This document shows, one piece after another, positions 1,998 to 23,270 of a stretch of 64,000 bases of DNA. A model generated the notes under the pieces. The model worked only from the letters and a program-made list of their open reading frames with translations, was not told where the DNA came from and ran no database searches. A program made the translations under genes and the position numbers. The DNA is from Candidatus Lloydbacteria bacterium RIFCSPHIGHO2_02_FULL_50_18 (lineage in GTDB: Bacteria > Patescibacteriota > Minisyncoccia > Phycocordibacterales > UBA6899). Within the stretch, counting starts at the first letter, position 1. The number at the start of each line of letters is the position of its first letter. The DNA lies in NCBI GenBank assembly GCA_001821395.1, contig MHLM01000015.1, forward strand, positions 2,293-66,292. Reading direction: 5' to 3'.

Positions 1998-2240
1998 CTA
2001 TTTTTTCAGAAAAATCCACACAAATTGAACCCCATACCACAGATACCATGCTAACCATAAAACGAAATATGGTTGCAACTGGTGCAACTAATAGAATAAA
2101 TATATGCAATTTTTAAAATTAAGTCAAAAAATGGACATACTGAAGCCCTTTTCTGCCATTCTCGCTTCAAGAATGAACGGAGTGTCATTAGGAAAAATTG
2201 GTCGCGCAAAGCTCTTCGATTCCTGTTGGAGGAAATTCCA

Positions 2241-2280
2241 ATGCCGGGAATCTCGGCTACCGCCGCGGGTGATATTCAAT
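2241..2280. repeat. tRNA-Pro 3'-end fragment (atgccgggaatc) fused to a conserved 34-nt element GGAATCTCGGCTACCGCCGCGGGTGATATTCAAT; attR-like scar
   Basis: 12 nt identical to the tRNA-Pro T-stem/T-loop region at 2531-2542. The following 34 nt are identical to 22816-22849, and a degenerate copy lies at 15126-15158. Confidence 0.6.
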
Positions 2281-2480
2281 CTCGACGACTCGATAATGAA
2301 TATCCTTTCGATTCTCGTCGACAGTGCCGCAGAGTGAGAATCGGTCACGAGTTACTAAGCTTTTTATTTCGCTACGCTCATAAAAATCTAAGTACTCTCG
2401 ACCCCGACTCGCTCGCCTCGAAGACTCGGCATAGCTCCGTCTTTCGATCCCCGGGCGGGACTGAGGCAGCTCAGTCCCTC

Positions 2481-2532
2481 ATCCCGACCATATGAAAAAA
2501 CACCTGATGGCGTTTTTTCATATGGTCGGGAT
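2481..2532 (-). terminator. Extended palindrome / intrinsic terminator overlapping the tRNA-Pro 3' end
   Basis: ATCCCGACCATATG-AAAAAA-[CACCTGATGGCG]-TTTTTT-CATATGGTCGGGAT. The outer arms are an inverted copy of the tRNA 3' terminus. The inner stem is flanked by A6/T6 tracts, so it could terminate in either direction. Confidence 0.6.
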
Positions 2533-15111: not shown

Positions 15112-15160
15112 TGTGGACCATAACGGAATCTCCACCTACCGTGGCGGGTGGATTCTCCTA
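15112..15160. repeat. Degenerate direct repeat of the tRNA-Ala(GGC) 3' end plus a degenerate copy of the conserved arm element; putative attR of the defense island
   Basis: gtggaccat matches the tRNA-Ala(GGC) acceptor 3' strand at 22272-22280. The following aacggaatctccacctaccgtggcgggtggattctcc is ~75% identical to GGAATCTCGGCTACCGCCGCGGGTGATATTC. Confidence 0.5.
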
Positions 15161-15177
15161 CGGAACAATACAAATTG

Positions 15178-17535
15178 CTATTTTACCCCCGCGTACAAAC
15201 TTCTCTGGAAATCAAAAAAGGTCGAGCGAATAGCGTCTACATCCCCGAGAATATCCACCGCATCAGCAATAGCGTGATATTTCAAATTGAGCAATTGCGG
15301 GAGCTTTTCTTCGTCGAGCTCCTCGACTCCGCGCTCGACATACTTAGCAAGTACGAACTCAAGAAAATCTTTTTGATCATCATTCAATCCGCCCAAGATT
15401 GCACTCTTGGCACCCAAAACACGATCGACGCGCGAGATTGGCTGTACGCAAAACGAGACATAAGCGAGCACGTCAAACAAATCACTGTTTTCCGCATCGA
15501 TCATCTTTTGAAGTATCTCAAGCTCATCCTTCCCATACCCCGCCTCAGCAAGCTTATCGAGAAATACTTTTCTCGTACTTGGATTGGCCCAAATTTCACG
15601 AAGCTCAACTTCATTCTTATAAAATGAAGGGAGTGCACCGAACATGTTGTTCATAAATTCCTCTACCGAGATCGGCTTCCCATCTGCGCTCCAAAATGAG
15701 GTGGAGATCATATGCTTTATTTCTCGATCCTTTCCATCCCGCAACTTTATTTTAAGCTTTTGTATGGGTGGAGGCACATCGCACACGCACGGCTTCTGTC
15801 CGCACACAACGCATGGCGCGGTCGGAGGCTTCACACACACACAGGGCGTCATACCACATGCTGCACAGGGTTGTTTCGGCGCTGGCTCCACTATCGGCTC
15901 ATCAATGGGCTCTCCGTCCCACTCAGGGTCAGCGAAGTGATGATACGCATCCACAAAGTCATAGATAGTGAAATACTCCTTTCCGTCAAAGAGCCGAGTT
16001 CCTCGTCCAACGATCTGCTTAAACTCAATCATGGAGTTTACGGGGCGCATCAGTACAATATTGCGAATGTTTCGCGCATCGACTCCCGTCGAGAGCTTTT
16101 GTGAGGTAGTGAGGATGGTGGGGATACTTTTTTCATTATCCTGGAATTCTTTCAAATACTGATCCCCGCGAGCACCGTCATTGGCCGTCACGCGCACACA
16201 ATAATTTGGCTCAGTGCTCTCTTTCATCTGATTCACCAAGTCACGCACTGCGAGTGCATGGTCTTGTGTTGCGCAAAAGATAATAGTCTTTTCGTTTTGA
16301 TTTATCTCCTCAAGTATGACGCGTACACGCTTCGCCTCACGCTCCTTGATCTCGATGATCTTATTAAAGTCCGCCTCTTCGTAGATTTTTCCTTCCTCCA
16401 CTTCCCCCTCGATGATCTGGTCGTCCGAAGTGTACACATAATCATCCATCGTCGTCTTGATACGCTTCACCTTAAATGGCGTCAGAAATCCGTCATTCAC
16501 TCCGGTTTTGAGCGAGTAAGTGTATACGGGCTTTCCGAAATAGTTGTAGGTGTCCACGTTGTCTTGCCTGCGTGGCGTCGCGGTGAGCCCAAGGTGTACC
16601 GCAGGCGCGAAGTGCTCGAGGATCGCTCGCCAATTGCTCTCATCGTTCGCACCCCCACGATGACACTCGTCAATAATGATCAGATCAAAAAAGTCCGAGG
16701 GATAGTCCCCGAAATATGGCGAACCATTTTGCCCGCTCATAAAAGTCTGGAATATGGTGAAAAAGATGCTCCCATTTGTGGGCACAGCACCCTTCTTCCG
16801 TATATCAAGTGGATTAATGCGCACAAGTGCATCCTCATGGAAAGCCGAGAATGAATTAAATGCCTGATTTGCTAAAATATTTCTGTCGGCAAGAAAGAGG
16901 ATTCTCGGGCGCCTCCCTCCATCTCGCGCCAAGTTCCATCGTGACTGAAAAAGCTTCCACGCGATCTGAAATGCAATAAAAGTTTTCCCCGTGCCTGTCG
17001 CAAGCGTTAGAAGCGCCCGTTGCTTGTTTTCCGCAATTGCATCGAGTGTATTGTTCACGGCAATTTCTTGATAGTATCGCGCACTCTTTGTGCCGTTCAT
17101 ATCCTCAAACGGGACAGCGGCAAATTTCTCCTTCCATGCATTTTGGTCAGAATAGACCATGTTCCATAATTCATCAGGAGTCGGGAAACGTTCCACATAT
17201 TTCTCCGCACCCGTCTCCATGCATATCTCGTATATTTCTTTGCCGTTAGTGGCATAGGTATATTTGATCTCAAGTTTCTCAGCATAAGCCTTCGCCTGTG
17301 CGACGCCCTCCGTCGCCGAGAGTCCCTCATGCTTTGCCTCCACAACCCCGATCTTCATGTTTTTATAAACCAAAATATAGTCAGCGATCTCAGGCTTCCC
17401 GCGTACTCCACCAGTCATAATGCGTCCGAGGGTTATGCGAAACTCCCGCAGGACCTTCGATCCCTCGATCTCGCCCCATCCGGCTTCTTTCAGCTTCGGA
17501 TCAACATATTCCGCTCGTGTTTCAGATTCATTCAT
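15178..17535 (-). CDS. hsdR: Type I restriction enzyme R subunit
   Basis: N-terminal PD-(D/E)XK (ADYILVY...VVEAKH), helicase motifs LATGTGKT / DECH, typical HsdR layout. The C-terminal third carries an unusual Cys-rich tandem motif. Confidence 0.9.
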   Translation of the reverse strand: MNESETRAEYVDPKLKEAGWGEIEGSKVLREFRITLGRIMTGGVRGKPEIADYILVYKNMKIGVVEAKHEGLSATEGVAQAKAYAEKLEIKYTYATNGKEIYEICMETGAEKYVERFPTPDELWNMVYSDQNAWKEKFAAVPFEDMNGTKSARYYQEIAVNNTLDAIAENKQRALLTLATGTGKTFIAFQIAWKLFQSRWNLARDGGRRPRILFLADRNILANQAFNSFSAFHEDALVRINPLDIRKKGAVPTNGSIFFTIFQTFMSGQNGSPYFGDYPSDFFDLIIIDECHRGGANDESNWRAILEHFAPAVHLGLTATPRRQDNVDTYNYFGKPVYTYSLKTGVNDGFLTPFKVKRIKTTMDDYVYTSDDQIIEGEVEEGKIYEEADFNKIIEIKEREAKRVRVILEEINQNEKTIIFCATQDHALAVRDLVNQMKESTEPNYCVRVTANDGARGDQYLKEFQDNEKSIPTILTTSQKLSTGVDARNIRNIVLMRPVNSMIEFKQIVGRGTRLFDGKEYFTIYDFVDAYHHFADPEWDGEPIDEPIVEPAPKQPCAACGMTPCVCVKPPTAPCVVCGQKPCVCDVPPPIQKLKIKLRDGKDREIKHMISTSFWSADGKPISVEEFMNNMFGALPSFYKNEVELREIWANPSTRKVFLDKLAEAGYGKDELEILQKMIDAENSDLFDVLAYVSFCVQPISRVDRVLGAKSAILGGLNDDQKDFLEFVLAKYVERGVEELDEEKLPQLLNLKYHAIADAVDILGDVDAIRSTFFDFQRSLYAGVK

Positions 17536-18185
17536 GATGATTGTTTCGCACCATACTGCTTAACTGCCACACCGTCATATCTTTCTTTGAGTCCCTCATA
17601 AATAAGACTCACGAGGGGCTTATAATCATCGGCATGATCGATTTGCGCAAGCGCCTGACGGTAGCGATTCTTATTTTCCTTTTCTACTTTTATTGATATA
17701 CCAATTAACCCGTAGCGCTCCAAAATCAAATTCGCAGCAAGACGAGCAGTGCGTCCGTTCCCATCCCGAAATGGATGAACGCAGGTGATAGAATAATGCA
17801 ACCATGCCGCCAGATGAATAACTCGCTCAACCGTCTGATGGACTTTCGCCATGCTTACATTTTTTCCTCTTATTATTCCCTCTGCTTTATCTAGCGCTTG
17901 TAATTTTTTCTGCAACTCGACCTCCCTTTCGTTCATGAGGTCATTTATTTTTGAGTGATGAGGGGGGACGTGACTTGAGTCTGTTATTTCAAGATTTTCC
18001 GTTCTATACTTTCCCGCAATATCAGGCCAGGCATCTTTGAATATTTCCCGATGAATTTCCTTGATCGTTTCAATCGAAATACCCTTGTGTGATCGTGCAA
18101 ATTTTCTTACAAAACGAGAAGCGCGGATCACTCCAATCGCTTCTCGTTTTTGTAACTCTTCTTCCGAGCGCGGACACTCTACCAT
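17532..18185 (-). CDS. Fic/Doc family protein (AMPylator-type toxin domain)
   Basis: Canonical Fic motif HPFRDGNGRTARL. Confidence 0.85.
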   Translation of the reverse strand: MVECPRSEEELQKREAIGVIRASRFVRKFARSHKGISIETIKEIHREIFKDAWPDIAGKYRTENLEITDSSHVPPHHSKINDLMNEREVELQKKLQALDKAEGIIRGKNVSMAKVHQTVERVIHLAAWLHYSITCVHPFRDGNGRTARLAANLILERYGLIGISIKVEKENKNRYRQALAQIDHADDYKPLVSLIYEGLKERYDGVAVKQYGAKQSS

Positions 18186-18193
18186 GGCAATGC

Positions 18194-18388
18194 TTACGCT
18201 ACTTTTAGCGCAAGTTTTTCAAATTCCCCGCGATCAAGCTTGCTTCCCTCAAGCGCACTCGAATAATAGGCATGCTCAATATCCCAACTTTTTTCAAGGG
18301 CGGATTTTTGTTTTGGCGTAAGCTGAGAAATCTGTCGTTCTGCAACTTTCTTACTCGCCATTAACTGTACGAGCCGTAGATTCTTCAT
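18194..18388 (-). CDS. FicA-like small protein carrying the Fic inhibitory motif (SxxxEG); separate antitoxin-like gene or frameshifted N-terminus of Fic
   Basis: 64 aa; ...IEHAYYSSALEGSKLD contains S-x-x-x-E-G. Its stop lies 8 nt upstream of the Fic ATG, in a different frame. Confidence 0.5.
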   Translation of the reverse strand: MKNLRLVQLMASKKVAERQISQLTPKQKSALEKSWDIEHAYYSSALEGSKLDRGEFEKLALKVA

Positions 18389-18480
18389 GGATATGACTAT
18401 ACCACTATTTGACTATTTTACAACTCCTCATGTTTCAGGGGTGACTCCTTGGCCTTGAAAGGTGTCTCCTCGGAAACTGC

Positions 18481-19686
18481 TCACAACTCCCCAGCAAAGG
18501 CCTTTTTCAACACTGATTTTTTAAGCTCCTCAATATCAGCAAGTTTTTGCCCGTAGATTCCTTCAAGTTTTTTTGTCTGCTCCGCAAGCGCATCGAGCTT
18601 TTTGACGATGGTTTTTTGCTCTGAGACAGATGGAAATGGAAACCGCTCATGCTCAAACGTTGCCATGTTGATATTGGCCTGCGCACTTCCTTTTCCTTTT
18701 GCCTGGAGTACTGCCTTAAATGATTGCAAAAGATACTCGACAAAATTAGTATCTGCAATTTTGGGATTAGCAACAAGTCCGATCACGCTATCAGGAAAAC
18801 ACGCATCGAAATTCAGAATTCCAGTTTCTGCGATATTCGCCGCAATCGTAATGCAGATAGTTCCTCTCGGCCACAGCTTGCTCTGCGCCAGTCCCGCCTC
18901 GCTATACGACTGTGAGTACTCCACAATAAAGTGTCCAGAATTTCGAATATCTCCCGTCTGAATAAAGGGGTACTTTCCGCCATAGAGTTTTTTGTCGTTT
19001 CTTGGGCGATGCTTAGATTTTCCTCTGCCGAATTGCAGGGAGACTTCTTCTAGCGTCTTTTTCTCCCATTTCGAATTTTCAAAAACCCCCTGCAAATACG
19101 ATTCAAAAAGTTCGCGGGAATTCTTCAAATTCTTCTCCGCATTCTCCTTCGCCTTCTCCACTCCCTCAAAAACCTCATCAAGAATTTTTACGATGCGCTT
19201 TTGCTCGATCGCAGAAGGAAAAGGTATCTCAACCTCTTTTAATTTTGTTCCAGAAAGTTCCTTAAAAGTTGTACCACTACCCAAACTATTCAAAAGTTCA
19301 ACTGAATCTTTCAAAAAATAATAGAGAAATTTTGTATCAAGATTTTTATTCGGTATTAATCCCTTACACCCCTGATTTGTTGAAATTTCTTTTGTGTTTA
19401 TCGCCAAGTGACCAATCGGAGCACGGGTAGACAAAATAATCGAGTTGGGTGGAATGATTTTTGCTGACGACCTTTCTAATCCAGCCTTTGAAATTTTTCG
19501 TTCTGTTTCCTCAACGTATATTTTCCTAAGTCTCCCCATGTCTTTGGGTGTGATCCACAAAATATTTCCATCCCAGTACCTCAAAACGCCCGTTTTAGGA
19601 GTTCCTCCGTTTACAATCTCGCAAACCTCCCCAAGTTTTTTTATTTGCCAGTTAGTTTTCATAGTGAGAAATAATTTGCTTTCCAT
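18481..19686 (-). CDS. hsdS: Type I restriction-modification specificity subunit
   Basis: Two target-recognition-domain halves with conserved HsdS N-terminal and central repeats (EVCEIVNGGTPKTG...; ...VSEQKTIVKKLDAL). Confidence 0.85.
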   Translation of the reverse strand: MESKLFLTMKTNWQIKKLGEVCEIVNGGTPKTGVLRYWDGNILWITPKDMGRLRKIYVEETERKISKAGLERSSAKIIPPNSIILSTRAPIGHLAINTKEISTNQGCKGLIPNKNLDTKFLYYFLKDSVELLNSLGSGTTFKELSGTKLKEVEIPFPSAIEQKRIVKILDEVFEGVEKAKENAEKNLKNSRELFESYLQGVFENSKWEKKTLEEVSLQFGRGKSKHRPRNDKKLYGGKYPFIQTGDIRNSGHFIVEYSQSYSEAGLAQSKLWPRGTICITIAANIAETGILNFDACFPDSVIGLVANPKIADTNFVEYLLQSFKAVLQAKGKGSAQANINMATFEHERFPFPSVSEQKTIVKKLDALAEQTKKLEGIYGQKLADIEELKKSVLKKAFAGEL

Positions 19687-20821
19687 TCTGTATCAATTGG
19701 TCGTAAGTGAGAATGTCTATATCATGTAAACTAGAGTTTAAAAAATGAAGAGCTTTTTTCTCATCCTCAGTAAAGGCATCTGACCGACCGAGAATGAGCT
19801 GGACTCTTGGTCTTAGTATTCGAACAGAGTGCTGAATCGACAAAGTTTTTTTATAGTCTTCGATTCTTTGTAAATAAATTAAGGACTGACCAATTGCTTC
19901 CGAGAAAGGGCTCGTAGGGAAATGGCAACGATGCGAAGTATCATATCTAAACAGCGGGCTGCCGACACTTGGCCTCTTAACTTCAATGAGGCTGATAAAT
20001 CCATCGGGCGTTTCGAGTACGATGTCTGCCTCAGAGTTATCTTCTCCAATCTTCCTGAATGTGTGCTTTTTGTAGTACTCGACTCCAAAAACCCACAAAT
20101 TAGCCCCAATCCATTTATGAAACACACCCTCTGGTTGATTTGCGTGATATTTCTTTAGTGCACCATTTCCTTTTATTGCCTCAAGGAAATTCACGTCAGA
20201 TTCGATGCTTAAAAGGTATTCTAAATTAGCAATAGCCTCTTTGTGTTCTTTTTGTTTTATTGCTGCGCTCAAACTCTCGACGTCAAGGGCATCAATATTC
20301 TCAATAAACTTCTGAAATAAACTATTTCTTTCAGCGGTGCCCAACTTATTAAAAAGCTGAAACAGCTGATCAGATGTTAATGCTTGCGACCCATGCAATA
20401 ACTGTGAAAATGCATTCTTTCGCTCCACAAGTTCACTTACGTTTTGATCAGTAAATTTTAAATTTTCCTTAGAAGTTAAGTCCAGTAAATCTAATGATTC
20501 AAGAAACTTAATAAAGCGAGTAAGTGCTCCTCCATGAAAACTGAAAGATTGATTATGTGGTATGCCAGTATCTTTTGAAAATCTTTGAATGCGCAATGAA
20601 AACCCAGTGGTGTCTTGATTATAAATAGCGGTTATTTCTTGCACTGCGCTTTCGCGTATGACCTCAAAAACTTTCTTTTCTTTTTGATCGTTATAAAAAT
20701 CTTTAAAATCTTTTAGCTCAAATACTTTTGAAATGTATCTGATGTTCCCATCTTTCCCAATCGCCCTACTCACATAAGTAAGTGCGGGGTCTTTTTTGAT
20801 CGCATACTCTCCATTGCTCAT
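19652..20821 (-). CDS. Shedu-like (DUF4263-type) PD-(D/E)XK nuclease embedded between hsdM and hsdS
   Basis: C-terminal nuclease core LWVFGVEYYKK...EADIVLETPDGFISLIEVKRPS (D...E-V-K). Size and layout resemble SduA. It overlaps hsdM by 4 nt and hsdS by ~11-35 nt, so it is operonic. Confidence 0.55.
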   Translation of the reverse strand: MSNGEYAIKKDPALTYVSRAIGKDGNIRYISKVFELKDFKDFYNDQKEKKVFEVIRESAVQEITAIYNQDTTGFSLRIQRFSKDTGIPHNQSFSFHGGALTRFIKFLESLDLLDLTSKENLKFTDQNVSELVERKNAFSQLLHGSQALTSDQLFQLFNKLGTAERNSLFQKFIENIDALDVESLSAAIKQKEHKEAIANLEYLLSIESDVNFLEAIKGNGALKKYHANQPEGVFHKWIGANLWVFGVEYYKKHTFRKIGEDNSEADIVLETPDGFISLIEVKRPSVGSPLFRYDTSHRCHFPTSPFSEAIGQSLIYLQRIEDYKKTLSIQHSVRILRPRVQLILGRSDAFTEDEKKALHFLNSSLHDIDILTYDQLIQNGKQIISHYEN

Positions 20822-22263
20822 AACAAGTTTTTCAATATCTGAGCACTTTCTTTATCCAATTTCTCCATTTCCTTCAAAATCTCCTTCGGGGTGCGCAGCG
20901 CTACCTCACCTCCCTTGTTTGGATTCTTTGCCGATAGGTCGAAGGTCTTCTGGTCGACGTCTTTTATGTCTATGCTCCATGAATTTTCAGAATCACCATT
21001 CGTCTCTTGGAGTTTTATAAAATCAGCAAGGTCGGCTTCGTTGAGTGCATTGGTCTTGCCGAGGTTGCGGTCGAGGTTGAGCTGATAGAACCAGACTTTT
21101 TTCGTTGGTGCACCCTTCTCAAAAAAGAGTATGACCGTTTTCACCCCTGCACCAGTGAATGTGCCACCTGGCAGGTCGAGCACGGTGTGGAGATTGCAAC
21201 TTTCAAGCAGCATTTTGCGAAGCGACACCGAAGCATTGTCGGTGTTGGAAAGAAAGGTGTTTTTGATGACCACACCCGCTTTTCCTCCGGCTTTCAGCAT
21301 TTTGATGAAATGCTGGAGAAAAAGAAATGCCGTCTCTCCCGTTTTGATAGGAAAATTCTGCTGTACCTCAGGTCTCTCTGAGCCTCCAAATGGCGGATTC
21401 GCAAGCACGATCTCATAGCGGTCTTTCTCCTGAATATCCGCAAGGTTTTCGGCAAGTGTGTTGGTGTGAATGATGTTCGGAGCCTCGATGCCATGGAGAA
21501 TCATGTTCATGATGCCAATGATGTAGGCGAGCGATTTCTTCTCCTTGCCGTAAAATGTCTTCTTCTGAAGTGTCTGCATGTCGCTTGTCGAAAGCTTCTT
21601 GCTCTCCTTCAAGTATTCAAACGCTTCCACGAGGAATCCCGCCGAGCCCACAGCCCCATCATAGACTTTATCGCCGATTTTTGGAGCGACCACCTTCACG
21701 ATGGTCTTGATGAGTGGGCGCGGGGTGTAGTACTCGCCACCATTGCGCCCTGCGTTGCCCATGTTCTTTATCTTGCCCTCGTAAAGGTGTGAAAGCTCGT
21801 GCTTTTCGCTCTGCGAGCGAAAGTGCATTCCATCCACGAGGTTCAGCACCTCGCGGAGGTTGTACCCACTTTGTATCTTGTTTTTGATCTCGCTAAAAAT
21901 TTCTCCGATCTTGTACTCGATCGTGTCGGGACTCACTGCATCCGCCTTGAATTTCTTGAAATACGGAAAAAGCTCGCGCTCGACGAAATCCTTAAGGTCA
22001 TCACCCGACAGTGCTTTGCTGTGGTCAATCTTCTTATCTCCTGTCTTGGGCACTGCCCACACTTCCCAGCGAAACTTCGGCGAGATGATATATTCGTATT
22101 TTTTACCTGCGAGCTTCGCCTCGGTCTCCTTATCCTTTTCAAGATCATCAAGATACTTGAGAAAGAGCACCCACGAAGTCTGCTCGATATAATCCAGCTC
22201 ACTCGACGCCCCCGCATCCTTACGCAATATGTCATCAATATTTTTAAAGTGTTGTTCAAACAT
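20818..22263 (-). CDS. hsdM: Type I restriction-modification DNA methyltransferase subunit
   Basis: N6-adenine MTase motifs including LANPPFGGSE and an HsdM N-terminal domain. The ORF-track N-extension to 22314 overlaps the tRNA. The real start is MFEQHF at 22263, 7 nt after the tRNA 3' end. Confidence 0.9.
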   Translation of the reverse strand: MFEQHFKNIDDILRKDAGASSELDYIEQTSWVLFLKYLDDLEKDKETEAKLAGKKYEYIISPKFRWEVWAVPKTGDKKIDHSKALSGDDLKDFVERELFPYFKKFKADAVSPDTIEYKIGEIFSEIKNKIQSGYNLREVLNLVDGMHFRSQSEKHELSHLYEGKIKNMGNAGRNGGEYYTPRPLIKTIVKVVAPKIGDKVYDGAVGSAGFLVEAFEYLKESKKLSTSDMQTLQKKTFYGKEKKSLAYIIGIMNMILHGIEAPNIIHTNTLAENLADIQEKDRYEIVLANPPFGGSERPEVQQNFPIKTGETAFLFLQHFIKMLKAGGKAGVVIKNTFLSNTDNASVSLRKMLLESCNLHTVLDLPGGTFTGAGVKTVILFFEKGAPTKKVWFYQLNLDRNLGKTNALNEADLADFIKLQETNGDSENSWSIDIKDVDQKTFDLSAKNPNKGGEVALRTPKEILKEMEKLDKESAQILKNLL

Positions 22264-22269
22264 TTTTTT

Positions 22270-22345
22270 TGGTGGACCATGGGAGAATCGAACTCCCCAC
22301 CTCTTCCATGCCATGGAAGCGCTCTACCAAATGAGCTAATGGCCC
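22270..22345 (-). tRNA. tRNA-Ala (anticodon GGC), G3:U70, CCA encoded
   Basis: Manual fold: acceptor GGGCCAT/ATGGTCC with G3:U70, anticodon stem CTTCC/GGAAG with loop ATGGCAT, T-arm GGGAG-TTCGATT-CTCCC, then ACCA. Confidence 0.85.
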
Positions 22346-22640
22346 GTAGAAAGATGATAACTTACAAATGGGTTTTCTTCAATGAAGACGGGGGGGGTCG
22401 AGTCGTGAAGGGAGTCGAAGCTTATTCGAGATCGTCATCGCAAGCTTTGTGGAGATGGCAAGTCGTGTAGTGCGTTGCCGGAGGGCAACACTGCTACGAA
22501 AAAGCCAACCGGGTGTCTGGCTTTGCGGACTTGGCTTACAGCTTCAGTACGCCTTTTCGATTTATTCAGAGCGAAGCTCTTCATAAATAACGAAAAGCCC
22601 TTCGACTCCCCGCCGCAAGTGAAGCAGTTCACTTGCTTGA

Positions 22641-22694
22641 GTCCACAGGTACAAAAAAATTACGATTTCTCGTAATTTTTTTGTACCTGTGGAC
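22641..22694 (-). terminator. Perfect 54-nt palindrome / intrinsic terminator overlapping the tRNA-Ala(CGC) 3' end
   Basis: GTCCACAGGTAC-AAAAAAA-TTACGA-ttct-TCGTAA-TTTTTTT-GTACCTGTGGAC. The 3' arm includes the first nucleotides of the tRNA 3' terminus. Confidence 0.6.
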
Positions 22695-22760
22695 TCACGG
22701 GGAGTCGAACCCCGGACTCGGCAATGCGAATGCCGTGTAATACCACTTTACTATGAGCCC
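22690..22760 (-). tRNA. tRNA-Ala (anticodon CGC), G3:U70, no CCA encoded
   Basis: Manual fold: acceptor GGGCTCA/TGAGTCC (G3:U70), anticodon stem CGGCA/TGCCG with loop TTCGCAT, T-arm CGGGG-TTCGACT-CCCCG, discriminator A. Confidence 0.8.
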
Positions 22761-22805
22761 AGTAGGCGAATAGTAGCGAATTTATCCGTGGGGTGCAAAT
22801 TGTTG

Positions 22806-22849
22806 GACCGTACAGGAATCTCGGCTACCGCCGCGGGTGATATTCAATT
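22806..22849. repeat. tRNA-Ala(TGC) 3'-end fragment (tggaccgtacagga) fused to the conserved 34-nt element; attR-like scar
   Basis: 14 nt identical to the acceptor/T-stem of tRNA-Ala(TGC) at 23197-23210. It is followed by aatctcggctaccgccgcgggtgatattcaat, identical to 2247-2280. Confidence 0.6.
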
Positions 22850-23141
22850 TCGTACAGGAATTTCGACGCCTACTGCGTCAGTACCCAGTTTCAATTTGAA
22901 TACAGGACTCTTCCTCTACGAGGACAGTATACCTTTCACCACAGAGAGTACTTCTTGTTTTCTAGCTCACTTCGTTCGTAAGTAAACAATGTCGTCCGTT
23001 TACTGAGGATAAGAATCCTGCCGTACAGGAATCTCTCCCCTTACAGGGGCAGTGTCCAGTTTCGATTTACTCAAAATAGGAATTTCTCGTAAATATCGAA
23101 ACAGGCTTCGAGTCCTTACGCAAGCAATGCAGATTGCTTGC

Positions 23142-23206
23142 TACGGTCCACACCATATAAGAAAAAACTGCCTTACGGCAGTTTTTACTTTATGGTGTGG
23201 ACCGTA
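23142..23206 (-). terminator. Extended hairpin / terminator overlapping the tRNA-Ala(TGC) 3' end
   Basis: ctacggtccacaccata-aagaaaaaa-CTGCC-ttac-GGCAG-ttttta-ctttatggtgtggaccgta: GC stem flanked by A/T tracts. The outer arms are an inverted copy of the tRNA acceptor 3' strand. Confidence 0.55.
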
Positions 23207-23270
23207 CAGGACTCGAACCTGCCACCCCCGCATTGCAAATGCGGTGCTCTACCAGATGAGCTAACGGCCC
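23198..23270 (-). tRNA. tRNA-Ala (anticodon TGC), G3:U70
   Basis: Manual fold: acceptor GGGCCGT/ACGGTCC (G3:U70), anticodon stem CCGCA/TGCGG with loop TTTGCAA, T-arm GCAGG-TTCGAGT-CCTGT. Confidence 0.85.

Follow-up and report, generated by a model that had tools for sequence, protein, structure and literature searches.

Islands residing in tRNA genes have a hallmark layout, an intact tRNA gene accompanied by a displaced fragment of its 3′ part (PMC4383910), and phage Ms6 crosses over in the T-loop of a tRNA-Ala gene (PMC1762012). Integrase islands of tRNA and transfer-messenger RNA (tmRNA) genes (Islander-type) leave the target gene intact, have their far end marked by a displaced 3′ copy that starts in the T-loop, hold cargo between the ends and form arrays stacked at one tRNA gene (PMC4383910, PMC1762012, PMC3146451). 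Here we describe a much smaller object that shares these traits, a folded module without protein genes that many Patescibacteria carry just behind their tRNA and tmRNA genes. The module is new, widespread and structured, and the tRNA fragments found with it are its built-in direct repeats. It was recognized in a stretch of 64,000 nucleotides (the window in what follows) from Candidatus Lloydbacteria bacterium RIFCSPHIGHO2_02_FULL_50_18 (contig MHLM01000015.1, positions 2,293 to 66,292 of the forward strand), where a first reading of the letters (the original prediction) had drawn attention to a repeated "arm" and tRNA fragments next to a tRNA-Ala(TGC) gene.

Four tRNA genes, all on the minus strand, were identified in the window with ARAGORN and Rfam: Pro(CGG) at 2523-2596, Ala(GGC) at 22270-22345, Ala(CGC) at 22689-22760 and Ala(TGC) at 23197-23270 (Rfam tRNA, 64 bits). 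Each of them is followed by a module. The three tRNA-Ala isoacceptors are grouped within 1 kb (22270-23270), and two of the three lack an encoded CCA. Alignment of the regions located 3′ of tRNA-Pro, tRNA-Ala(CGC) and tRNA-Ala(TGC) revealed a common module order in which the tRNA-like parts match the neighbouring tRNA. Read on the tRNA strand, a full element consists, in this order, of a hairpin that resembles a terminator (usually present), the acceptor 3′ strand and trailer in antisense, a hairpin P0, an antisense T-arm, a core and a sense copy of the tRNA end. P0 has a conserved CTGC loop and splits the antisense copy of the tRNA 3′ part. The antisense copy of the 3′ strand of the T-stem and of the T-loop (…GGGAATCGAA), located after P0, forms the 5′ strand of helix P1. 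The core is a three-way junction made of GAAAGG, P2/P3, CACCYG, the small hairpin CGGC-GGTA-GCCG (P4) and an A, and the consensus reads P0, GYG, P1 5′ strand xGGGAATC, GAAAGG, P2 enclosing P3, CACCYG, P4, A and P1 3′ strand GATTCCCx. The sense copy extends from T-loop G57 to about N73/C74. In the window, the acceptor 3′ strand and trailer recur as a reverse complement 3′ of the tRNAs, which creates palindromes of 25-28 nt.

A 19-mer from the arm had 28 exact matches in a collection of species-representative genomes, about half of them in metagenome-assembled genomes of Patescibacteria. The Patescibacteria matches (Parcubacteria, Paceibacterota, Lloydbacteria, Nomurabacteria and Saccharibacteria) have about 100 nt in common; the remaining ones fall inside genes of unrelated phyla and look like chance matches. 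A covariance model (R1) was built from 13 copies, and a degenerate-pattern scan of metagenomes added 29 contigs. The covariance model yielded 48 copies at 50 bits or more, in contigs of Patescibacteria. In a 56-row alignment 95.1% of cells were paired, and compensatory changes were found in 25 of the 26 pairs. When partners were slid by 1-3 columns, pairing was 32-47%, and none of 500 shuffles reached the observed value. The unpaired nucleotides GGAATCGAAAGG, CACCYG and the GTA loop are also kept across distant lineages. Spread within lineages is suggested by contigs L040, which has a tRNA-Lys, and L065, which has a tmRNA-type tail, as their P0 and core are almost identical. Tandem G·A pairs occur in P3, and purine-purine mismatches are in excess (14 vs 6); both indicate that the tRNA-sense strand is the one that folds. 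The strand test by pair counts gave 15 G·U pairs among about 1160, compared to 9 A·C. Two contigs, L037 and L011, carry tandem copies. In an Acidobacteriota bin, a tRNA-like 3′ end followed by a partial module (L033 3561-3655, 26 bits) is either a true occurrence beyond Patescibacteria or the result of mis-binning.

The link of the module to tRNA genes is tight. Of the 48 strong copies, 36 follow a same-strand tRNA or tmRNA gene at a distance of 10-200 nt; in L014 a truncated match overlaps its own tRNA by 17 nt. For about six others too little upstream sequence is present to judge, four have no tRNA within 1.1-2.9 kb, one is separated from a preceding tmRNA by 953 nt that include an NYN-domain gene, and for one the nearest same-strand tRNA is 2.2 kb upstream. 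The preceding tRNAs are those for Arg, Lys, Gly, Cys, Leu, Pro, Glu and Val. Modules may be interleaved with tRNAs, as in the L029 array (Cys, module, Leu, module, Lys), and in most loci inspected a terminator-like hairpin with a T-run stands between tRNA and module. The direct repeat after the core starts at T-loop G57, occasionally at C56; in the best-kept copies it is 17-23 nt long and often ends at N73-C74, and many other copies retain just 6-14 nt. At three loci (L056, L039 and L063) the repeat is 57-60 nt long and continues through the trailer, the anti-acceptor hairpin and P0. A repeat of this length, non-tRNA trailer included, argues for duplication at the DNA level.

The antisense parts behave differently from the downstream copy. 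The 5′ strand of P1 and the anti-acceptor are reverse complements of the 3′ strand of the tRNA, not copies of its 5′ strand: GCGGG is found in L037 where the tRNA has GTAGG, GCCGG in L063 where the tRNA has GTCGG, and GGACCGT at the Ala site of the window where the tRNA has GGGCCGT, with loss of the G3:U70 pair. The module loses G:U pairs in this way because its acceptor and T-stem are copied from the 3′ strand of the neighbouring tRNA. The same three sites led us to dismiss a tRNA duplicate with an insertion. P1 also tracks the T-loop variants GATT, GAGT, AAGT and GATTA. We refer to the 3′ part of the tRNA itself, from T-loop G57 to N73, as S1 (23198-23214 in tRNA-Ala(TGC)), and to the downstream copy of this part, after the module core, as S2. 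Where S1 and S2 differ within P1, the antisense strand matches S1 in about 9-10 informative cases and S2 in none, as judged by script and inspection; the uncurated script tally is 13:4:16. Informative cases include L036, L038, L048, L029 (twice), L058, and the Ala-TGC and Ala-GGC sites of the window. A full 8-nt antisense copy of the acceptor 3′ strand and N73 is present downstream of 11 of 63 tRNAs compared to 0-2 in controls. A separate observation concerns tRNA-Arg(CCT) at L037 339-413, located upstream of a canonical module. Its T-stem, GTAGG/CCCGC, contains two non-Watson-Crick pairs, and the antisense GCGGG pairs fully with the 3′ strand. The 3′ end of this tRNA may have been replaced by a slightly foreign copy.

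In the segment 22804-23196 downstream of tRNA-Ala(TGC), one complete copy of this small structured element is piled up with three truncated ones. Starting from the gene, a bidirectional terminator-like hairpin, AAAAACTGCC-GTAA-GGCAGTTTTT (23163-23186), forms the loop end of a long inverted repeat with arms at 23142-23166 and 23182-23206. It is followed on the minus strand by the antisense copy of the acceptor 3′ strand and trailer, TATGGTGTGGACCGTA (23141-23156). The presence of A instead of G at acceptor position 3 identifies this copy as the reverse complement of the tRNA 3′ strand rather than a copy of the 5′ strand. Next comes P0, GCAAGCAAT-CTGC-ATTGCTTGC (23119-23140, minus strand), with its conserved loop. 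The window was scanned with model R1 by cmsearch, and all matches were on the minus strand. Together with alignment and repeat families, the scan divides 22804-23156 into four units. Unit u1 (23021-23141; 27.9 bits, E ~1e-5) is the complete one and lies nearest the gene. Its P1 5′ strand, AAGGACTCGAA (23106-23116), is antisense to the T-loop and the 3′ strand of the T-stem, and is followed by a long P2/P3 hairpin (23057-23104), ACACTG, the P4 hairpin CCCC-TGTAA-GGGG (23037-23049) and AGAGATTCCTGTACGG (23021-23036), which includes a tRNA 3′ fragment. This form of P4 defines a "TGTA" subtype that is also present in L063. Units u2 (22898-22931, minus strand; TACTG, TCCTC-GTA-GAGGA and AGAG-TCCTGTATTC, with a 9-nt tRNA piece left) and u3 (22850-22897, minus strand; AAATTGAAACTGGGTACTG, ACGC-AGTAG-GCGT and CGAAATTCCTGTACGA) are stubs that keep only the small hairpin and a bit of the tRNA end. 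Unit u4 (22804-22850, minus strand), the arm of the original prediction, is the 3′ third of a canonical module: the P2 3′ strand TTGAATATC, CACCCG, P4 CGGC-GGTA-GCCG, AGATTCC and then the fullest tRNA-Ala(TGC) fragment (…CCTGTACGGTCCA, 22804-22817). The scan gave 30.6 bits for u3 and u4 together (22807-22897).

These results bear directly on how the repeat had been read. That this segment holds an exact second copy of a 34-nt arm was correct: the 34-mer GGAATCTCGGCTACCGCCGCGGGTGATATTCAAT at 22815-22848 is repeated without change at 2247-2280, next to a second tRNA (Pro), with 38 nt aligning at 97% and no such repeat expected. At that site the arm is fused, at 2241-2252, to ATGCCGGGAATC, a piece of tRNA-Pro (2531-2542). 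The fragment beside the arm is the 3′ end of tRNA-Ala(TGC) as proposed, TGGACCGTACAGGA being equal to 23198-23211, and its site is 22804-22817 rather than 22806-22819. Of the further partial copies, CCGTACAGGAATCTCTCCCC was found at 23021 as given, and CGTACAGGAATTTCG is present but starts at 22851, not 22853. Overall, CCGTACAGGA occurs three times in the window (22808, 23021 and 23202) compared to 0.06 expected, and three occurrences were reached in none of 100 shuffles. The T-loop difference is real too, the next bases being ATC in the fragment and CTC in the intact tRNA. It had been taken as the mark of an element's core copy, yet the antisense AAGGACTCGAA beside the tRNA matches GAGTCC of the live tRNA and not the fragment; the AATC/ACTC mismatch more likely reflects an older displaced tRNA end or the constant GATT of the module. 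The view of the arm as a part of a larger local element that left a remnant of about 350 bp did not hold. The arm is neither private to one island nor an att arm of a local integrated element; it makes up the last third, on the 3′ side, of a structured module that is about 100 nt long and conserved across Patescibacteria lineages with strong covariation. The idea of repeated integration at this tRNA is partly supported: direct repeats of the tRNA 3′ part do adjoin a conserved non-tRNA element, several of them stacked at one tRNA, but no integrase was found among the genes of the window or 149 neighbouring ORFs at 43 other loci.

Outside this region, a canonical full module is present 3′ of tRNA-Pro(CGG) at 2239-2341 (minus strand, 95.7 bits), holding the 34-mer at 2247-2280 followed by the tRNA-Pro fragment at 2241-2252. 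The P2 strand GAATATC is common to this copy and u4. At a Pro site in another Parcubacteria genome (L012) the module has GAAAACC with a compensated partner strand, and the lineage-specific GAATATC identifies u4 and the Pro copy as recently related within this lineage. A TGTA-subtype module follows tRNA-Ala(CGC) at 22506-22697 (minus strand; 29.7 bits for 22506-22636; P0 at 22616-22635), where a perfect 28-nt palindrome with arms at 22638-22665 and 22670-22697 takes in the acceptor 3′ strand. A mini-module without P2/P3, with a compensated P4, CCAC-GGTA-GGTGG, is located at 15113-15182 (minus strand; 17.9 bits, E 0.006, for 15117-15182). It begins at the HsdR stop codon and is followed by ATGGTCCAC (15113-15121), a match to the acceptor end of tRNA-Ala(GGC) on its 3′ side.

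Copies of the module stack and decay, as the complete u1 nearest the gene and the truncated u2, u3 and u4 at tRNA-Ala(TGC) illustrate. Strain variants diverge exactly at the 3′ end of this tRNA. Contigs L006 and L003 share the Ddl protein but have replaced the sequence right after the gene (L006 2662-2703 and L003 2409-2482, corresponding approximately to window 23089-23196). In L006 the divergence starts directly after …ACGGTCCAC and the sequences rejoin within the P2 loop; the variant is shorter, carries its own complement to the tRNA end and still pairs with the tRNA 3′ end. In L003 the divergence point is the same, and an unrelated stretch with an N gap follows, possibly an unassembled insertion. 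All other contigs with identical Ddl or ABC-transporter proteins have the same spacing throughout.

Cargo can sit between a tRNA and a module. Between tRNA-Ala(GGC) and the mini-module lies a 7.1-kb type I restriction-modification island (15183-22269, minus strand, defined by Pfam and GC content) with genes for HsdM, an SduA_C (Shedu-like) protein, HsdS, a small open reading frame (ORF), Fic and HsdR. Its GC content is 0.42-0.44 over 18-22 kb, compared to about 0.50 in much of the remaining window. The island begins 7 nt after the CCA of the tRNA, and the SduA_C nuclease and Fic genes are embedded in the HsdM/HsdS/HsdR operon. Its appearance is that of a defence island with the tRNA as its anchor. 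Elsewhere, in two metagenome contigs, a gene for an NYN-domain (PIN-like) nuclease is located on the opposite strand upstream of a module with a tmRNA-like tail (L044 2525-3091 and L046 11494-12060). In L044 the gene lies between tmRNA and module, whereas the L046 contig ends before any tmRNA comes into view. Cargo ORFs near modules are otherwise NYN-domain genes or of unassigned function. The possibility that the 20.5 kb between both arm copies form a single island was rejected, as the genes are housekeeping ones (UvrD, XseA, NUDIX, ABC transporter) and the two arms are each tied to a tRNA of their own.

When the module is set beside integrase islands, the identity block starts at a canonical sublocation, T-loop G57 (occasionally C56), in well-kept copies. 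No tyrosine or serine integrase gene was found inside, however, in a Pfam search of the window genes and of 149 ORFs located no more than 2.5 kb from modules at 43 loci. The module is mostly without cargo and only about 120-200 nt in total, its far end is a covarying three-way junction, it always includes the 3′ part of the tRNA in antisense, and it was not found in phage or plasmid collections. Another point of comparison is provided by integron attC and CTX-type att sites, in which structure is conserved with few conserved unpaired bases and a folded single strand rebuilds a duplex target, the cassettes being stacked at one anchor. The module resembles these sites, and does no more than resemble them, in that its structure is kept while its sequence covaries, and it resembles integron cassettes in being empty or loaded with cargo and stacked at one anchor point. 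Unlike attC, it has no R″/R′ boxes (RYYYAAC…GTTRRRY) in its consensus and no IntI, attI or Pc, it is anchored at a tRNA T-arm, and single-strand recombination is only proposed for it. Like miniature inverted-repeat transposable elements (MITEs) and cis-mobilizable elements (CIMEs), the module is protein-less, short and multi-copy, spreads within a lineage and is presumably mobilized in trans. MITEs have terminal inverted repeats and short target duplications, whereas the module has tRNA direct repeats of 18-60 nt and a tRNA-specific internal inverted copy; CIMEs derive from a known integrative and conjugative element with common att sites, and no such parent was found for the module. Finally, as in tRNA-like RNAs (the tmRNA domain, YrlA, viral RNAs), the succession of helices is that of a tRNA (acceptor-like strand, side hairpin, T-stem and acceptor 3′ strand), but a junction of about 60 nt takes the place of the T-loop. 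Rfam matched nothing except tRNA and tmRNA genes, either at the gathering threshold on the window or at E up to 1-10 on five canonical loci and 22340-23200. A tmRNA or permuted tRNA was dropped since no model matched. A hammerhead ribozyme was rejected by eye: the junction strands GAAAG, CACCYG and A do not, on either strand, correspond to its CUGANGA/GAAA/UH core, and other known ribozyme cores were dismissed likewise. Literature searches by keyword and by sequence string returned nothing relevant to the module.

We favor, with a probability of roughly 45%, the view that the module is a miniature integrative element, cassette-like and mobilized in trans, that enters at the T-loop/3′ end of tRNA genes and stacks there. 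Such an element would enter the gene within the block from the T-loop to the 3′ end, bringing a replacement 3′ end and a matching antisense strand. The old 3′ end would be pushed outward as a displaced fragment and would then decay, and new entries at the same tRNA would stack closest to the gene. The interval between tRNA and module could be filled by cargo, such as the type I restriction-modification island in this genome and the NYN gene after tmRNA elsewhere. As the element encodes no recombinase, the enzyme moving it would have to be supplied in trans. The covariation of the helices suggests that the form recognized may be a folded single strand, in which the antisense and sense copies would rebuild a duplex image of the tRNA target. 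Integration of this kind would account for the antisense strand tracking the live tRNA, the decay of S2, the position of the newest and most complete copy beside the gene, and the differences between strains at the tRNA boundary.

Several observations weigh against integration. Because each tRNA has its own version of the antisense and sense copies, a simple mobile unit must generate them afresh whenever it reaches a new tRNA, and there is no nameable mechanism for this. Conservation of the unpaired core nucleotides from Saccharibacteria to Parcubacteria fits a functional RNA equally well. L006 shares the 3′ half of the core with the window but not the 5′ half, so that there is no clean element boundary, and the contigs compared include no excised circle or empty site and none lacking the whole segment or the restriction-modification island. 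Pfam revealed no integrase, recombinase, transposase or reverse transcriptase near the tRNAs among the window genes, and no recombinase, transposase, reverse transcriptase or Cas-like family in the 149 ORFs; the neighbours of modules at the 43 loci are housekeeping genes. Pattern scans of IMG/VR for the module gave no matches, and blastn against INPHARED phages and PLSDB plasmids gave none either. An IMG/VR pattern scan for the variant sequence of L003 was likewise negative.

There is a substantial chance that the module, rather than being a tRNA-anchored integrative element of a new sort, represents a new RNA class. In its concrete form this main alternative, which we hold to be possible rather than probable, sees the module as a non-coding RNA with a function, or as an RNA domain that acts in cis within tRNA operons, and that would mimic the 3′ half of the tRNA and serve as its antisense partner. 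The 5′ segments of the module would pair either with the T-arm and acceptor 3′ strand of the tRNA itself or with the downstream copy. The two alternative folds could control or mark folding, processing, termination or turnover of the tRNA precursor, and the three-way junction would bind a conserved protein or ligand. A transcribed role agrees with the orientation of the module, always that of the tRNA, with the interleaved array of L029, with the covariation in 25 of 26 pairs, with the constant unpaired GGAATCGAAAGG, CACCYG and GTA loop, and with the G·A pairs in P3 and the mismatch excess (14 vs 6), which point to the tRNA-sense strand. The lasting complementarity of the antisense strand to the live tRNA and the enrichment of antisense acceptor copies (11 of 63 vs 0-2) are expected as well, and tRNA and module are predicted to form a very stable rod (z = -11.3) in which the tRNA 3′ half pairs with the module. 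Yet a terminator-like hairpin with a T-run separates the two in most inspected loci. G·U pairs, at 15 of about 1160, are rare and barely exceed A·C (9), a pattern not usually seen in an RNA that selection maintains. Many copies are truncated, stacked or decaying, the downstream tRNA copy is not maintained, and the 57-60-nt direct repeats take in sequence with no tRNA role. The Ala copy is not an aminoacylatable mimic, since G3:U70 is replaced by A:U. Between the integrative element and the RNA stands a further tentative idea, to which we give clearly less than even odds: a protein-less and previously undescribed class, widespread in Patescibacteria, that would use a folded single strand, RNA or single-stranded DNA, with an antisense and a sense image of the tRNA T-arm and acceptor 3′ strand on either side of the conserved three-way-junction core, to target, copy itself beside or regulate nearly any tRNA or tmRNA gene.

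Ordinary scars of integrase islands or prophages with tRNAs as attB, the arm being an att-flanking arm of one genome-private island family, are the classical explanation and the one first offered for this locus. An intact tRNA with a displaced 3′ fragment and a restriction-modification island bounded in that way speak for it. We nevertheless consider it unlikely, as the window and the 149 neighbouring ORFs contain no integrase, and the motif of about 100 nt follows many tRNAs in many genera, mostly free of cargo and among housekeeping genes. Covarying stems are not a trait of integrase arm sites, and no integrase-bearing phage or island with the module in its attP was found in IMG/VR, INPHARED or PLSDB. 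Less probable still, and indeed quite improbable, is a guide RNA similar to omega-RNA, CRISPR RNA or bridge RNA, with the core as a scaffold and the 18-23-nt tRNA tail as a guide to a target preceded by the T-loop TTC, directing an RNA-guided nuclease, transposase or recombinase to tRNA genes. The scaffold-then-guide order and the length of the tail would be typical. In homing CRISPR-associated transposons the guide unit is located at the cargo end distal to the target, and the module is placed in the same way. But none of the 48 copies adjoins an effector gene (TnpB, IscB, Cas12 or IS110 recombinase), pairing inside the scaffold (P1) takes up the initial 6-9 nt of the would-be guide, and the part that decays is the tail, the antisense strand being retained. 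That the pattern is a tandem duplication of local origin or an artefact of assembly, with no biological unit behind it, can be regarded as refuted and has next to no probability left; both had been named beforehand as outcomes that would undo the original prediction. Contigs of some samples do break inside these repeats and palindromes. Nonetheless, a 1.4-kb region is 100% identical in contigs of other samples (L001 from ENA and L002 from JGI), and the presence of the same sequence in samples from different sources shows that it is not produced by assembly. Homologous arrangements occur in more than 40 unrelated contigs, and dozens share the architecture, with compensatory changes.

Patescibacteria (also known as CPR) have small genomes, and descriptions of mobile elements or non-coding RNAs from them are few. 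A single covarying motif of about 100 nt now marks the 3′ side of many of their tRNA and tmRNA genes across Saccharibacteria, Parcubacteria/Paceibacterota, Lloydbacteria and Nomurabacteria. If the module is mobile, tRNA targeting and anchoring of cargo would proceed without an element-encoded integrase, and assembly breaks and strain variation at tRNA loci would be explained. Should single-strand targeting prove true, it would be a new mode of tRNA-gene recognition, independent of any recombinase encoded by the element, and could serve as a platform for the capture of defence cargo such as restriction-modification and NYN genes. If the module is a functional RNA, it would be a new tRNA-linked class in organisms whose RNA biology is almost unknown. 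Under either reading the covariance model is a ready annotation tool and the module a testable object.

Between tRNA-Pro and its canonical module (2342-2522, minus strand), alignment revealed a palindrome with arms at 2480-2504 and 2509-2533 that takes in the tRNA 3′ end, a CTGC hairpin, GGGACTGAG-CTGC-CTCAGTCCC, and a motif that we call type B; the model R1 gave only a weak match there (14.1 bits at 2424-2478). Type B (…GTTTCGCGAGCACGCGAAAC-CGCGAGGCGGGGTCGCG…TTAGTGATTCGTGACC) is a second conserved non-coding motif located between tRNA and canonical module in several lineages. It is found at 2342-2478 in the window, at approximately 1020-1150 in L022, 20-141 in L024 and 700-818 in L038, and also in L016, L054 and L057. 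The L022 copy, the one covered by a relaxed scan, had no Rfam match at E up to 1.

The window itself is a segment of a bacterial chromosome. According to Pfam, its minus-strand genes include those for UvrA, UvrB and UvrC, Ddl, XseA, a UvrD-like protein and a two-component system. Almost every long ORF from 1 to 64000 is on the minus strand, and GC skew is negative in all 2-kb bins. Such strand bias and skew fit a location of the whole window within one replication arm with a strong gene-strand bias.

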